A stretch of DNA of 64,000 nt from Escherichia phage LHE83. The stretch lies in the sequence record OQ561750; one strand, written 5' to 3'. Below, piece by piece: positions 5,493 through 62,593 of the stretch. Below the pieces are notes generated by a model. The model worked only from the letters and a program-made list of their open reading frames with translations. It was not told where the DNA came from and did not search any database. Position numbers and translations under genes: made by a program. Each line of letters starts with the position of its first letter. Position 1 is the first letter of the stretch.

Positions 5493-6065
5493 ATGGCTCA
5501 ACTTTATTTTCATTATGCGGCGATGAATTCCGGGAAAACCGCTTCATTGCTAACGGCAGCTCATAACTACAAAGAACGTGGTATGGGCGTACTCCTTTTA
5601 AAGCCTGCGATAGACAATAGAGAATCAAGCCATAGCATTTCGTCTCGTATAGGGATTAGTCAAGAGGCTAATGCCGTGACTCCGGATATGGACCTATACG
5701 AGTTCTATCGTTGGGCTGAATCTCAAAAAGATATCCACTGCGTATTTGTGGATGAAGCACAGTTCTTAGAACCTGCACAGATAAAACAACTGGCAAAGAT
5801 AGTAGACAATTATAATGTTCCGGTTATGTGCTATGGGCTAAGAACTGATTTTCAGGGTAAACTGTTTCCTGGCTCTGCTGAATTACTCGCTACGGCAGAT
5901 AAACTCGTTGAGTACAAAGGTGTGTGCCATTGCGGCCGTAAAGCTACTATGACGGCTCGTATCCAAGATGGTATCGCAATTAAGGACGGAGCCCAAGTTT
6001 CTATAGGTGGCAACGATTCTTACGTGTCATTGTGCAGGAAGCACTGGATAGAAATAACGAGTTGA
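5493..6065 (+). CDS. tk: thymidine kinase
   Basis: AAMNSGKT P-loop, VFVDEAQF, Zn-ribbon CHCG...LCRKHW; near-identical to T4 Tk from memory. Confidence 0.9.
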   Translation: MAQLYFHYAAMNSGKTASLLTAAHNYKERGMGVLLLKPAIDNRESSHSISSRIGISQEANAVTPDMDLYEFYRWAESQKDIHCVFVDEAQFLEPAQIKQLAKIVDNYNVPVMCYGLRTDFQGKLFPGSAELLATADKLVEYKGVCHCGRKATMTARIQDGIAIKDGAQVSIGGNDSYVSLCRKHWIEITS

Positions 6066-15606: not shown

Positions 15607-15870
15607 ATGTTTAAAGTTTATGGTTATGATTCAAATATTCACCGTTGTGTTTTCTGTGATAATGCCAAACGTCTGCTTGATGTTAAGAAACAACCTTACG
15701 AATTCATTAACGTGATGCCGGAAAAAGGCGTATTTGATGATGAGAAGATTGCTCAACTCCTGGCTGCGCTTGGTCGCGAATCTCAAATCGGTTTGACCAT
15801 GCCGCAAGTATTTGCCCCTGATGGAAGTCATATCGGTGGCTTTGACCAACTGCGAGCGTATTTCAAATGA
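15607..15870 (+). CDS. nrdC: glutaredoxin/thioredoxin NrdC
   Basis: 87 aa; VFCDNAKRLL...QVFAPDGSHIGGFDQL near-identical to T4 NrdC from memory. Confidence 0.85.
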   Translation: MFKVYGYDSNIHRCVFCDNAKRLLDVKKQPYEFINVMPEKGVFDDEKIAQLLAALGRESQIGLTMPQVFAPDGSHIGGFDQLRAYFK

Positions 15871-16028
15871 TTGAATTAATGTTGGTTGTTTTGTATCTTA
15901 TCATCGGTATTGGTTATGCTAAGACCCTAGCTAAATTAGATGATTCAGGTGACTTTTGTTGGTGGTTGACGTCTATGATTTGTTGGCCTTTATTTCTGGT
16001 TGGTGCTTCATTCTGGAACTTCAAATGA
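15867..16028 (+). CDS. hypothetical small membrane protein (53 aa)
   Basis: Read by eye; ATGA overlap with the nrdC stop; hydrophobic; below the track length cutoff. Confidence 0.35.
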   Translation: MIELMLVVLYLIIGIGYAKTLAKLDDSGDFCWWLTSMICWPLFLVGASFWNFK

Positions 16029-22172: not shown

Positions 22173-22346
22173 ATGACGAATTCGATGGATTTTGATAAGA
22201 TTAAATCTGACAAAAATGAGATGATACTTCAATTTGAAGCCGCTCGTATTAAAGCAGAAAATGAAGGTACTATTACCTATAAGCCTATCAAGTTCAGGTC
22301 TTCTCACGAACCTCTGTACGGTGTATTGGTTGGTAAAGGAGCTTAG
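22173..22346 (+). CDS. hypothetical small protein (57 aa)
   Basis: Read by eye; AGAGG Shine-Dalgarno; stop codon sits in the terminator hairpin loop. Confidence 0.3.
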   Translation: MTNSMDFDKIKSDKNEMILQFEAARIKAENEGTITYKPIKFRSSHEPLYGVLVGKGA

Positions 22347-22358
22347 GCTCCTTTTTTG
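22336..22358 (+). terminator. rho-independent terminator
   Basis: AGGAGC-TTAG-GCTCCT followed by TTTTTT. Confidence 0.6.
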
Positions 22359-22400
22359 CTTTATATTTGGATGATAAAATGAACCAACTGAGGAGAACAT

Positions 22401-22544
22401 ATGGAACTACTTTTAGGATATGTCGTGTTATTCATGGCATTCTACACATTCACACGAGCTTGTTGGATAGGATTCTTTTCCACTCCTGACGGGTTCATTT
22501 CAATAATTTTATTTTGCATTGCAATAACGGCGCTTGGCTTATGA
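22401..22544 (+). CDS. hypothetical small membrane protein (47 aa)
   Basis: Read by eye; CTGAGGAGAACATATG Shine-Dalgarno; hydrophobic; ATGA overlap with the gene 47 start. Confidence 0.4.
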   Translation: MELLLGYVVLFMAFYTFTRACWIGFFSTPDGFISIILFCIAITALGL

Positions 22545-44727: not shown

Positions 44728-44927
44728 TGAAACCTTTATCATGGCTTAAAGATTGGCTGGACCGTCCTGGTGATTATCTTGATGACGGGTGGTTGGACCA
44801 AGCTAATGCAGAAATGAAACGCGAGTCCGAAGAATGGATTCTTAAAGGTATCCGTGAAGAACGCGAAAAGAAATTAGAACGCGAAGCTCTTAGAATTATG
44901 CGTGACATCTATGGGGATAAATCATGA
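44727..44927 (+). CDS. hypothetical protein
   Basis: ORF track; TAATG coupling. Confidence 0.5.
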
Positions 44928-45091
44928 CTACTGAAGAGGCCGAAAAACAAGCTAAAGAGGCACTGGATTTGCTTCTTAAAATTGGTAGTAAAATGATGAA
45001 AGAAAACGAGAAATACATCCAAGAAAATAAAATTCCGGATGGTCCTTTAGTAGGTAAACTAAGAAGAGGAAATCATAATGAAAGTTTATGA
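44924..45091 (+). CDS. hypothetical small protein (55 aa)
   Basis: Read by eye; ATGA overlap with the upstream stop. Confidence 0.35.
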
Positions 45092-52295: not shown

Positions 52296-52514
52296 ATGGC
52301 TAAAGTTACTGTGAACTCGACTCGTGAAGAATTTGAAGATGTTCTGTTCAACCCTGATTTAATCGTGGTTCAAAAGGAACATTCTGATACGTTTTCTCAT
52401 TTATCGTCGGTTTATGTATACGAAAACCAAGGTGACAAAAATCCTATCTATGCAGTGTTCCGTGAAATCACTGCTGAAGGCATTGACTACTGGAAGGAGA
52501 CTTATAATGTCTAA
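52296..52514 (+). CDS. hypothetical protein
   Basis: ORF track. Confidence 0.5.
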   Translation: MAKVTVNSTREEFEDVLFNPDLIVVQKEHSDTFSHLSSVYVYENQGDKNPIYAVFREITAEGIDYWKETYNV

Positions 52515-52911
52515 TGAAGCTAAATTTGAAGCCGGTAAATGGTACTATTTTAAAGATGAGGCGGCCGAAGCTGAATTCCGTCGTAGAGATATCAATAATA
52601 TTGTAGCCGATGTTATTATTGAAGGTGAAGGTTTTTCCCCGGTTAAAATTTCAAATGGATGTGTAATCAACTTCGACCTGGTTTACGGCGATAATAAAGA
52701 TATGGTTATATACGCTAGTGAGAGGAAATTTTTTACCGAAATGGTTGAAGTTGAGTGCGACGAAGAATTGGATGAAGACCGTGATTATGGCTACGATGAT
52801 AGTGATGATCTGTCCGAACTAAGTGATTTCCCTTTGACTAAAATCACTATCTCTAATAATTCTGAAGCCTGGTCAGTTTACCAGATGTTGAAAGCTCACT
52901 TTAAGGAATAA
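52507..52911 (+). CDS. hypothetical acidic protein
   Basis: Internal ATG after AGGAGA Shine-Dalgarno of track ORF 52414. Confidence 0.5.
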   Translation: MSNEAKFEAGKWYYFKDEAAEAEFRRRDINNIVADVIIEGEGFSPVKISNGCVINFDLVYGDNKDMVIYASERKFFTEMVEVECDEELDEDRDYGYDDSDDLSELSDFPLTKITISNNSEAWSVYQMLKAHFKE

Positions 52912-52912
52912 T

Positions 52913-53089
52913 ATGCCACTTTATGATTACAAATGCCAATCTGAAGACTGTGCAAAAGAATACGAAAAAATCAAGAAAATCTCTGAAAGAGATAATGATG
53001 TTTGTCCTGATTGCCATCGGCTGGCTGTTCGGTTAGTCTCGGCTCCTAAACATGTTAATGGCGGTTTTTACGACCTGCTGACTAAGTGA
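52913..53089 (+). CDS. FmdB-type zinc-ribbon protein (58 aa)
   Basis: Read by eye; MPLYDYKCQSEDC...CPDCH pattern; AAGGAA Shine-Dalgarno. Confidence 0.5.
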   Translation: MPLYDYKCQSEDCAKEYEKIKKISERDNDVCPDCHRLAVRLVSAPKHVNGGFYDLLTK

Positions 53090-53095
53090 GAAATT

Positions 53096-53356
53096 ATGAA
53101 ATATATTAATCGTTCTATTGCAGCTCTCGTATTAGCAGTTTCTTTGGTTGGATGTACTGATGCCGATAATGCTACCCGTGTATTGGATGCAAATGGCTAC
53201 GAACAAATCCAAATCACAGGATACAACCTATTTGGCTGCTCTGAAGATGATTTCCAACGTACAGGCTTTATTGCTGTGGGTCCGACAGGTAAAAGGGTTG
53301 AAGGAACTGTTTGTTCTGGATTATTCTTTAAAAAGTCGACCATTCGATTTGATTAA
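53096..53356 (+). CDS. hypothetical lipoprotein
   Basis: Signal peptide plus LVGC lipobox. Confidence 0.55.
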   Translation: MKYINRSIAALVLAVSLVGCTDADNATRVLDANGYEQIQITGYNLFGCSEDDFQRTGFIAVGPTGKRVEGTVCSGLFFKKSTIRFD

Positions 53357-53422: not shown

Positions 53423-55240
53423 ATGATTAAGAATGAAATTAAAGTACTGTCCGACATTGAACATATCAAAAAACGTAGTGGGATGTATATTGGCTCAAGT
53501 GCTAATGAAGCTCACGGTCGATTCCTGTTTGGTAATTTTACACAGGTAAACTATGTTCCTGGACTGGTTAAATTAATTGATGAAATCATTGATAACTCTG
53601 TCGATGAAGCTATTCGTACCAATTTTAAATTCGCAAATAAAATTGATGTTCAAATTAAGAATAACCAGGTTTCAGTTTCTGATAATGGTCGTGGTATTCC
53701 ACAAGCAATGGTCACCGACCAAAATGGTGAACAGATTCCAGGTCCTGTAGCTGCATGGACTATTCCAAAGGCAGGTGGTAACTTTGGAGATGACGCTGAG
53801 CGTAAGACAGGCGGCATGAATGGTGTCGGTAGTAGTTTAACTAATATCTTCTCTGTTTTGTTCACCGGCATCACCTCTGATGGTGAGAATGAGATTACTG
53901 TTAACTGTTCAAACGGAATGGAAAACAAAGGTTGGTCTACTAAGAAATCTAAAGGTAAGGGTACTTCGGTTATATTCACCCCAGACTTTAATCATTTCGA
54001 AGAAAATAGCCTGTCACAAATTTATCTGGATATTACATTAGACCGATTGCAAACTCTGGCCGTAGTTTATCCTGATATTCAATTTACTTTTAATGGTAAA
54101 AAAGTAGATGGCAACTTTAAAAAGTATGCTAAGCAATTTGGTGAAGACTTTGTAATCCAAGAAACCGATAATGTTTCGATGGCATTTACTCCTTCTCCGG
54201 ATGGATTCCGTCAACTGACTTATGTAAACAATATCCACACCAAGAATGGTGGCCACCACGTTGAATGTGTATTCGATGATATTTGTGAACACCTTCTGCC
54301 AGGCATTAAAAAGAAATACCGTGGAATTGAAGTAACTAAAGCTCGTGTTAAAGAATGCCTTACGATGGTGATGTTCATTCGTGATATGAGCAACATGCGT
54401 TTTGATTCACAGACTAAAGAACGTTTGACCTCTCCTTTTGGTGAGATTCGCAATCATATCCAAATTGATGCTAAGAAAATTGCTCAAGCCATTCTTAAAG
54501 TTGATGGGTTGATTATGCCTATCGTTGAAGCTGCTTTAGCACGTAAATTAGCAGCTGAAAAGGCTGCCGAAACTAAAGCCGCTAAGAAAGCTTCTAAAGC
54601 CAAGGTCCATAAGCATATTAAAGCTAACCTATACGGCAAAGATGCTGATACAACCCTGTTCCTAACCGAAGGTGATTCCGCTATGGGTCCTTTCATTGAA
54701 GTTCGTAATAAAGACCTTCAAGGTGGTTACCCATTGCGTGGTAAGGTTATGAATACCTGGGGAATGACAGCAACAGATATCATGAAGAACAAGGAACTAT
54801 TTGATATCTGTGCAATCACTGGATTGGTTATTGGTGAACCCGCAGATAAAACCAACTATCGTAATATTGCTATTATGACCGATGCCGATGTGGATGGTAC
54901 TGGTTCGATTTATCCATCATTGCTAGCCTTCTTTAGTCAATGGCCCGAATTGTTCGAACAAGGCCGAGTACGGTTCTGTAAAACTCCGGTGATTATTGCT
55001 CAGGTTGGTAAAGAACAGGAATGGTTCTATGATGTGCCTAGTTATACCAAAGCTAAGGACTCTCTACCAAAACACTCCATTCGTTATATCAAAGGACTGG
55101 GTTCTCTTGAGAAGGCTGAATACCGTCGAATGATTCAAGACCCTAAATTTGATGTGGTTCAATTACCTGAAGATTGGAAAGAACAGTTCGAAATGCTCCT
55201 TGGTAATGACCCACAACTCCGTAAGGCCTGGATGTCGTAA
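53423..55240 (+). CDS. 39: DNA topoisomerase II large subunit gp39, full length (GyrB-like; unsplit 39+60)
   Basis: 605 aa continuous ORF; GHKL ATPase motifs (IDNSVDEA, GMNGVGSS) and TOPRIM (EGDSA); C-terminal part corresponds to T4 gp60. Confidence 0.9.
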   Translation: MIKNEIKVLSDIEHIKKRSGMYIGSSANEAHGRFLFGNFTQVNYVPGLVKLIDEIIDNSVDEAIRTNFKFANKIDVQIKNNQVSVSDNGRGIPQAMVTDQNGEQIPGPVAAWTIPKAGGNFGDDAERKTGGMNGVGSSLTNIFSVLFTGITSDGENEITVNCSNGMENKGWSTKKSKGKGTSVIFTPDFNHFEENSLSQIYLDITLDRLQTLAVVYPDIQFTFNGKKVDGNFKKYAKQFGEDFVIQETDNVSMAFTPSPDGFRQLTYVNNIHTKNGGHHVECVFDDICEHLLPGIKKKYRGIEVTKARVKECLTMVMFIRDMSNMRFDSQTKERLTSPFGEIRNHIQIDAKKIAQAILKVDGLIMPIVEAALARKLAAEKAAETKAAKKASKAKVHKHIKANLYGKDADTTLFLTEGDSAMGPFIEVRNKDLQGGYPLRGKVMNTWGMTATDIMKNKELFDICAITGLVIGEPADKTNYRNIAIMTDADVDGTGSIYPSLLAFFSQWPELFEQGRVRFCKTPVIIAQVGKEQEWFYDVPSYTKAKDSLPKHSIRYIKGLGSLEKAEYRRMIQDPKFDVVQLPEDWKEQFEMLLGNDPQLRKAWMS

Positions 55241-60850: not shown

Positions 60851-60995
60851 GTAGCAAAATGTGGTGCCTTATTTGGTTGACCTGTATCCCAGTGATTTGC
60901 GTATGTTTTAGTTTATTGTTGTGAAAATTGGCATAAAACAGTGTACATCTCCATTAATCATGATATTATAGACCTATCAACTAATGGAGATGATT

Positions 60996-61106
60996 ATGAA
61001 AAACTTACTTAAAGCAATTTGGAACATGTTTGTGTTGTTAATGGTATTGAGCATTTTCCCAATCGTTTTTATGATTGACCATGTACGTGTATTCTTTAAT
61101 TTCTGA
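60996..61106 (+). CDS. hypothetical small membrane peptide (36 aa)
   Basis: Read by eye; follows the promoter cassette at 60941-60990. Confidence 0.35.
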   Translation: MKNLLKAIWNMFVLLMVLSIFPIVFMIDHVRVFFNF

Positions 61107-61761: not shown

Positions 61762-62211
61762 ATGAATACTTATATGACTCGCCGTAACGTTCTGTCTGCT
61801 GGTGCTACTACTGTTGCTTATGTTAAGAACGGTGAATACCAAAATGGTAAACCTTCTAAAGAAATCTCTGCTCAGCCAGGCTTCTACTTCTTTGTTAAAG
61901 GTGGTGCTGATTCTCGTGTCGTAGCGGCTCGTTTTTATGTCGGTAATCAACGTTCGGCCCAAGGGCTCGACGGTATCGTGGCTAACATTCGTAAGAAACG
62001 TTCTCAATCAGCTCGCACTATGGCAGTGAACGGTGTTGTGTATGAAGTTCTTTATGTACCGGCTTCTAAGATGAAACCCCTGACTACAGGTTTTGGTAAG
62101 GGTCAAATTGCAATGGCTTTCACTCGTAATCATAGTTCCGACCTCCAGACACTGGAAGAAATGAACCGTATGTTGGCTGATAACTTTAAATTCATCCTGC
62201 AGGCTTACTAA
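61762..62211 (+). CDS. ndd: Ndd-like nucleoid disruption protein (tentative)
   Basis: 149 aa; position upstream of stp; FYVGNQRS...[12 protein letters not shown]...MLADNFKF recalled as Ndd-like; unverified. Confidence 0.5.
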
Positions 62212-62288
62212 TGAGTAATTTCCATAACGAGCATGTGATGCAGTTCTATCGTAACAATCTTAAAACTAAAGGCGTCTTCGGACGCTAA
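62211..62288 (+). CDS. stp: Stp peptide (activator of host PrrC anticodon nuclease)
   Basis: 25-aa [28 protein letters not shown] matches the T4 Stp sequence as recalled; TAATG coupled. Confidence 0.7.
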
Positions 62289-62298
62289 TGAGGAAAAT

Positions 62299-62460
62299 AT
62301 GGTTATCCTAGTTTTTATTGAACTTATTATGGCTATAGTCTGTTCAGTTTGCTTCTTTTTAGGTGTGTGGGCCCCTCGTCCGATATTCTTAAGTTTTCTG
62401 CTTATTGGTTGGGTTCTTTCTACTTTTGTCGGTTTACTTAAGACGATTAAAAATGATTAA
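62299..62460 (+). CDS. hypothetical small membrane protein (Ac-like by position and size)
   Basis: Read by eye; 53 aa, hydrophobic; GAGGAAAAT Shine-Dalgarno. Confidence 0.4.
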   Translation: MVILVFIELIMAIVCSVCFFLGVWAPRPIFLSFLLIGWVLSTFVGLLKTIKND

Positions 62461-62593
62461 TAAAATCCTGGGCTACTCGTTAGCCCTTGCTGCTTTATTA
62501 GTAGCGCTGTATTACGGAGTAATGTTCGGACTTATCCAAGTTGTGCTTTTTATTTCCGATGTTATTATGGCTATTCATTCACTAGTATGGTAA
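62453..62593 (+). CDS. hypothetical small membrane protein
   Basis: Internal ATG of track ORF 62405; ATGA overlap. Confidence 0.4.
   Translation: MINKILGYSLALAALLVALYYGVMFGLIQVVLFISDVIMAIHSLVW

Follow-up and report, generated by a model that had tools for sequence, protein, structure and literature searches.

Nine short open reading frames in a Dhakavirus early region are conserved T4-type genes, including a 39.2 orthologue that likely modulates GroEL

The window analyzed here, a 64,000-nt stretch of the genome of Escherichia phage LHE83 (OQ561750), carries on its + strand the genes nrdC ... 49 ... 55 ... a-gt.x, 47.1, 47 ... soc, mrh.x, srh, modA.x ... motB, cef, goF, 39.2, 39.1, 39, rIIA, rIIB ... 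ndd, stp, 52.1, 52, which is the gene order of the T4 early region. The stretch around the genes under study shares 99.8% identity with Escherichia phage LQ5 and 88–96% with IME341, AnYang, IME08, and JS98, all of them T4-type phages of the genus Dhakavirus, and by sequence comparison the window is Dhakavirus, i.e., a JS98/IME08-like T4-type coliphage. An initial annotation of the window had listed nine short ORFs as plausible genes, one of them encoding an FmdB-type zinc ribbon. All nine translate cleanly from ATG to stop at exactly the coordinates collected in Table 1, and the sole reason for their absence from the ORF track is its cut-off of 60 aa.

Table 1. Small genes and neighboring features of the window, with the dN/dS of each relative against the window sequence.
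Feature	Position	Strand	Description	dN/dS vs. window
Further ORF <60 aa	7654-7749	+	Gap between larger genes; hydrophobic peptide	
Unnamed membrane peptide (WG01 ORF82)	15867-16028	+	53 aa, directly past nrdC, ATGA overlaps at both ends	0–0.39
Further ORF <60 aa	17156-17269	+	Gap between larger genes	
a-gt.2 orthologue	22173-22346	+	57 aa, hydrophilic, stop codon within terminator-like hairpin	0–0.6
Stem-loop	22335-22354		At the end of a-gt.2	
Spacer a-gt.2 to 47.1	22347-22400		54 nt, with terminator-like hairpin	
47.1 orthologue	22401-22544	+	47-aa predicted membrane peptide, ATGA-coupled to gene 47	0.04–0.35
Further ORF <60 aa	32141-32278	+	Gap between larger genes; hydrophobic peptide	
Further ORF <60 aa	41790-41951	+	Gap between larger genes	
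modA.4 orthologue	44924-45091	+	55 aa, hydrophilic, ATGA-coupled to srh, 14-nt overlap with next gene	0.07–0.37 (informative pairs)
goF	52414-52911	+		
39.2 orthologue	52913-53089	+	58-aa FmdB-type zinc ribbon (Cys8, Cys13, Cys31, Cys34), counterpart of T4 gp39.2/NwgI	0.02–0.11; up to 29 synonymous vs. 13 non-synonymous differences (binomial p 2e-11)
39.1	53096-53356	+	Intact, 86 aa	
39	53423-55240	+	Topoisomerase large subunit, one 605-aa ORF	
Further ORF <60 aa	60847-60924	+	Gap between larger genes; TTG start, resembles T4 ndd.6	
ndd.4 orthologue	60996-61106	+	36-aa single-pass membrane peptide	0.07–0.24
stp	62211-62288	+	25-aa peptide, activator of host PrrC anticodon nuclease	About 0 in most pairs; changes almost all synonymous
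ac-slot ORF	62299-62460	+	Membrane peptide of 53 aa with two helices, located where T4 has ac	0.12–0.48 (distant pairs); ~0.7–1.2 (near relatives, very few substitutions)
52.1 orthologue	62453-62593	+	46-aa membrane peptide, ends 4 nt ahead of gene 52	0.07–0.35

The good Shine-Dalgarno (SD) sequences and start coupling attributed to these ORFs at the outset were found for most of them. Clear SDs precede five starts, namely 39.2 (TAAGGA), a-gt.2 (GAGGT), 47.1 (AGGAG), ndd.4 (GGAG), and the ac-slot ORF ((G)AGGA), but that of 52.1 is weak (TAAG) and three ORFs have no recognizable SD and are instead coupled by overlap. Among the latter, modA.4 and the ORF downstream of nrdC start through an ATGA overlap with the preceding stop, and the start of stp shares one base with the stop of ndd (TAATG). 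An ATGA overlap with gene 47 also ends 47.1, and the first 8 nt of 52.1 lie within the preceding ORF. The terminator loop proposed for the end of a-gt.2 does exist as a sequence pattern, a stem-loop followed by a T-rich tail (TTTGCTTTAT) that holds the TAG stop in its loop. A sigma-70 promoter scan around 39.2 gave hits at chance level. All five products proposed to be membrane peptides (47.1, the nrdC-downstream ORF, ndd.4, the ac-slot ORF, and 52.1) bear this out, with maximal Kyte-Doolittle 19-residue means of 2.0–2.9. They are predicted one- or two-helix inner-membrane peptides, most of them translationally coupled to their neighbors; the a-gt.2 and modA.4 products are small and soluble.

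The product of a-gt.2 matches Pfam DUF5486 (E 2.5e-20, 72.5 bits vs. a cut-off of 27) and phrog_2140 (E 4e-32), and both JS98 and WG01 annotate a CDS of 174 nt there under the name a-gt.2. Just a short spacer separates it from 47.1 in the window, whereas in T4 the alpha-glucosyltransferase gene a-gt, absent from this place in the window, lies directly upstream of 47.1. The 47.1 peptide (phrog_6693, E 1.5e-30; Kyte-Doolittle maximum 2.0) is 78% identical to T4 gp47.1 and is annotated in JS98, WG01, and T4. The ORF past nrdC matches phrog_6756 (E 8e-30), corresponds to a 162-nt CDS annotated there in WG01, and was found in 110 phage records, including T4-like phages of Klebsiella, Serratia, and Kosakonia at 43–51% identity. 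The modA.4 product (phrog_2681, E 2e-32; 585 records) is 84% identical to its T4 counterpart over 45 aa and is annotated between srh and modA.3 in Bp7 and T4.

A similar number of records (594) contain ndd.4 (phrog_3098, E 4e-21), 61% identical to T4 ndd.4. Its ATG at 60996, with GGAG ahead of it, corresponds in alignments to the MKK/MKN start that its relatives have in common, and more distant phages have no upstream ATG; the T4 annotation differs from the window in having 5–6 additional N-terminal residues. The ndd.4 of the JS10 RefSeq record is 40 aa long, presumably by use of the upstream in-frame ATG that lies at 60984 in the window. The assignment of stp made in the initial annotation is firmly backed by Pfam PF08133 (Nuclease_act, E 2e-20, 72.1 bits vs. 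a 25-bit cut-off) and phrog_6763. All 25 of its residues are identical to T4 Stp (26 aa), which overlaps the stop of ndd by one base in the same way, and the two differ only in the C-terminal Gln, missing from the window peptide. Finally, 52.1 matches Pfam DUF7396 (E 6e-22, 78 bits vs. 27) and phrog_3595 and is 96% identical to T4 gp52.1.

The ORF between stp and 52.1 stands where T4 has ac, the gene of its acridine resistance protein (51 aa, predicted to lie in the membrane). Besides this position, it shares with T4 Ac a similar length, two hydrophobic helices, and the same 8-nt overlap with the start of 52.1, giving a common C-terminal -ND. It belongs to phrog_9347 (E 5e-26), and tblastn with its protein retrieved 79 records, all Dhakavirus-like or from phages of Enterobacter, Edwardsiella, and Kosakonia, with no Tequatrovirus among them. 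Comparison with T4 Ac gave a blastp alignment of 16 aa at E 0.008 and a family-profile hhalign probability of 1%, values on which we rejected the name ac for this ORF. As far as these searches can detect, it is a positional analogue of T4 Ac and not a detectable homologue. Across 48 loci anchored on gene 52, the slot upstream of 52.1 holds several mutually dissimilar hydrophobic peptides of ~44–60 aa, all coupled to the conserved 52.1 via 1-, 4-, or 8-nt overlaps. At least three types occur among T4-like lineages, two of them being those of T4 Ac and of Dhakavirus. Judged from these loci, position and topology of the ac slot are conserved and its sequence is replaced. The presence of unrelated two-helix families in one slot could be of interest for work on small phage membrane proteins.

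The 58-aa product of 52913-53089 (MPLYDYKCQSEDCAKEYEKIKKISERDNDVCPDCHRLAVRLVSAPKHVNGGFYDLLTK), a cytoplasmic protein, is encoded between goF and 39.1, its ATG lying 1 nt past the goF stop and its own stop 6 nt ahead of the 39.1 ATG, so that it nearly fills a gap of 184 nt. The order goF, 39.2, 39.1, 39 agrees with that of IME08 and T4, and IME08 and JS98 annotate the identical 177-nt CDS as 39.2 in this place; by tblastn, 39.2 was found in 970 phage records. The zinc ribbon of FmdB type recognized in the initial annotation is confirmed by Pfam PF09723 (Zn_ribbon_8; 43.9 bits vs. a gathering score of 34.4) and NCBIfam TIGR02605 (45.4 bits vs. 31.3). Like other members of the family, the protein opens with MPxYxYxC (here MPLYDYKC), whose first residue is the initiator Met, and has two Cys pairs, C8/C13 and C31/C34, about 17 residues apart. 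In alignments of 18 and 50 members the four Cys and MPxYxYxC are near-invariant, and among the 50, C13, C31, and C34 never vary and at least 90% keep C8. The predicted ribbon takes up the first ~44 residues and is followed by a flexible tail (SAPKHVNGGFYDLL), which aligns with the bacterial consensus SAPAIQFKGSGFYxTDY, a SAP...G-G-F/W-Y motif found family-wide in phage and metagenomic members. We had considered whether the NGGFYDLL part of this tail imitates, specifically in T4, the mobile loop of GroES (GGIVL), and rejected the idea since the motif aligns with the family-wide bacterial SAP...KGSGFY..DY.

The window protein differs from the FmdB family at large in being phage-encoded, in its first knuckle, CQSEDC (CX4C) vs. 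the usual CXXC, and in stopping 14 residues past the ribbon, where many bacterial members carry a Ser/Thr/Lys-rich C-terminal extension. The 'SSSS' in the name of TIGR02605 (CxxC_CxxC_SSSS) refers to this degenerate Ser/Thr-rich extension, which most members carry; short members without it also exist, so the extension is not required for family membership. An AlphaFold2 (AF2) model from a 50-sequence alignment (pLDDT 77) places four short beta strands around the Cys pairs, and its tail is of low confidence. Foldseek with this model against the PDB gave nothing below E 0.1 (best E 0.4), and a PDB sequence search with gp39.2 found no solved relative (best E 2.6). The weak top matches of Foldseek (RbpA, a YdjO-SigA model, the MCM N-terminal domain, aRF1, and Sir2) are generic zinc-ribbon-like modules, all non-significant, and a specific structural assignment was rejected on these grounds. 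Support for the zinc-ribbon fold thus comes from the HMM match, the spacing of the Cys residues, and a model of medium confidence. Taken by homology, gene order, and substitution pattern, 39.2 is an FmdB-type zinc ribbon and the syntenic orthologue of T4 39.2, under strong purifying selection.

The comparison with T4 is complicated by its reference record. In NC_000866.4, the segment that aligns with the window gene (record positions 5663-5839, minus strand) carries one extra T, GCTTCCTAAG vs. GC-TCCTAAG in all relatives, and this insertion cuts the annotated T4 39.2 to 45 aa, a protein that would have 58 aa otherwise. PMC5153855 gives the length of T4 gp39.2 as 58 aa. In the record, the extra T is probably an artefact, either of the sequence or of the strain. 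Once the 1-nt insertion is removed, both proteins have 58 aa and 50 of the 58 residues are identical (86% over the full length), the eight substitutions being E11K, E25G, N28T, D29G, V48G, G50N, and the last two residues. The two also share the slot goF-39.2-39.1-39, the four cysteines, and the C-terminal tail motif.

The genes that follow show further differences from T4. The 39.1 of the window has a lipoprotein-type signal (MKYINRSIAALVLAVSLVGC) with an LVGC lipobox, whereas the N-terminal counterpart in the T4 reference reads MKYISRSIAALVLAVSLINSTDAD and then meets a stop, and the annotated T4 39.1 (66 aa) begins further downstream. From the position of this annotated start behind the interrupted N-terminal part, T4 may have lost the signal peptide. 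Gene 39 is likewise continuous in the window, without any of the insertion (mobA, 60.1, and the translational bypass of gene 60) that in T4 separates gp39 from gp60, the two parts of the topoisomerase large subunit.

The T4 protein, gp39.2 or NwgI, is reportedly a modulator of host GroEL. Two sources summarize how it pushes GroEL to an open conformation able to bind the host or the phage cochaperonin and how certain groEL mutant hosts block a T4 phage deleted for 39.2 (PMC5153855; PMC4396842). Literature searches on this protein, its family, and ribosome profiling of T4 gave nothing of use other than citations. Given the orthology and the 50/58 identity, the mechanism can be transferred to the window protein, which would act as T4 gp39.2 does, binding or acting on host GroEL and moving the chaperonin to an open conformation receptive to GroES or the phage cochaperonin. 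The outcome would be that chaperonin-dependent folding of phage proteins is protected, with 39.2 being essential only on certain groEL alleles. By orthology, GroEL modulation is most likely the role of the window 39.2, the effect having been demonstrated by others in T4 only; we infer that it carries over to LHE83, and likewise which residues would contact GroEL.

A competing reading takes the name of the family at its word and sees in the 58-aa protein an FmdB-like transcriptional regulator that would act on DNA or RNA polymerase, and not on GroEL, as part of the host take-over. RefSeq does use the product name 'FmdB-like transcriptional regulator' and phrog_1076, which the protein matches, is labeled 'transcription regulation', but the name derives from one putative regulator gene, and NCBIfam now says only 'FmdB family zinc ribbon protein'; we know of no demonstrated DNA binding in the FmdB family. 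RNA-polymerase or sigma binders (RbpA chains and the YdjO-SigA model, E 0.4–2.6) do figure among the weak Foldseek tops, although these matches are non-significant and the zinc-ribbon modules of MCM, aRF1, and Sir2 score equally. The neighborhood might be called as a witness too, since the neighbors goF, cef, and motB each have RNA or transcription as their target. However, in two bacterial genomes the family members sit in unrelated housekeeping contexts (next to NifU/NifS in one, and to purD/purE and serS in the other) with no regulator-target pattern, and the sole experimental data on an orthologue indicate GroEL. The RefSeq label rests on the family name and not on evidence for the 39.2 protein, and we regard a regulator of this kind as improbable compared with the GroEL modulator.

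An extension of the GroEL reading to the whole, very large bacterial family, in which FmdB zinc ribbons would be small GroEL modulators with the conserved post-ribbon tail (SAP...G-G-F/W-Y) docking on GroEL, appears to us very unlikely. Inspection of the same two bacterial contexts found no chaperonin genes near the FmdB members, giving no support for a general link with GroEL. If it were true, the window protein would be a minimal representative consisting of ribbon and tail, apt for mapping the interaction.

Whether the nine ORFs are genes at all is decided by their conservation. At the GC content of 39%, a stop-free frame of 25–58 codons has a chance of 0.02–0.18 per frame (about 0.02 for the length of 52913-53089), so that openness alone is weak evidence. 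We collected related loci from IMG/VR, anchored where possible on large neighbors (47, 52, nrdC, and the mrh-like gene), and the presence of the small ORF was therefore not a selection criterion. Conservation and synonymous-site analysis across relatives, the check proposed along with the ORF list, bears the genes out. Every one of the nine has intact syntenic orthologues of near-equal length, with protein identity going down to ~30–60% in distant T4-like phages. Nei-Gojobori counts of each relative against the window sequence show an excess of synonymous change, with dN/dS well below 1 wherever substitutions suffice (Table 1). Near pairs of the ac-slot ORF have very few substitutions, and its constraint is thus demonstrated in the distant comparisons only. 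All nine match a PHROG family (E 1e-11 to 1e-32), four score above the Pfam gathering score (Zn_ribbon_8, DUF5486, DUF7396, and Nuclease_act), and an Rfam scan of the whole window gave no RNA family at the gathering threshold.

That some or all of them are chance frames or untranslated spacers between genes (UTRs or RNA elements), for which one could point to the odds of an open frame at this base composition, to the missing SDs of stp, modA.4, and the nrdC-downstream ORF, and to the unclear constraint of the ac-slot ORF among close relatives, is hardly credible in view of the syntenic orthologues, the synonymous excess, the PHROG matches, the empty Rfam scan, the ATGA or TAATG overlaps that couple the SD-less ORFs, and the experimental characterization of the stp and 39.2 products in T4. 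As genes, then, the nine ORFs that had been proposed below the track cut-off hold up on conservation, dN/dS, and family membership; by these comparative measures they are real conserved genes, already catalogued in T4-type phages. We are highly confident that all nine are ordinary small early-region genes of Dhakavirus and that 52913-53089 is the orthologue of T4 39.2, likely GroEL-modulating.

The finding is right yet already known, every ORF being annotated in some relatives at least and placed in PHROG families. The remark in the initial annotation that small peptides of this kind are usually unstudied does not apply to 39.2, known as a GroEL modulator from T4 genetics and biochemistry, nor to stp. 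Its list was correct for the nine ORFs but incomplete, since the gaps between larger genes hold at least five further conserved ORFs shorter than 60 aa (Table 1), each of them with a PHROG match (E 1e-14 to 3e-31). Public annotation of these small genes is uneven. The ac-slot ORF or ndd.4 is missing from several RefSeq relatives, many public records label modA.4 and modA.3 'molybdenum ABC transporter, periplasmic molybdenum-binding protein ModA', and one RefSeq record (ime09) gives ndd.4 as 'naphthalene 1,2-dioxygenase'. The false product names of modA.4 and ndd.4 come from the propagation of gene names.

Overall there is little new biology in these ORFs, and the practical value of the analysis is one of annotation hygiene, concerning the indel in T4 39.2, the omitted ORFs, and the false names. 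The cut-off of 60 aa conceals about 14 genuine genes in these 64 kb of T4-type sequence, and two of them, 39.2/NwgI and stp, have known host-directed functions.
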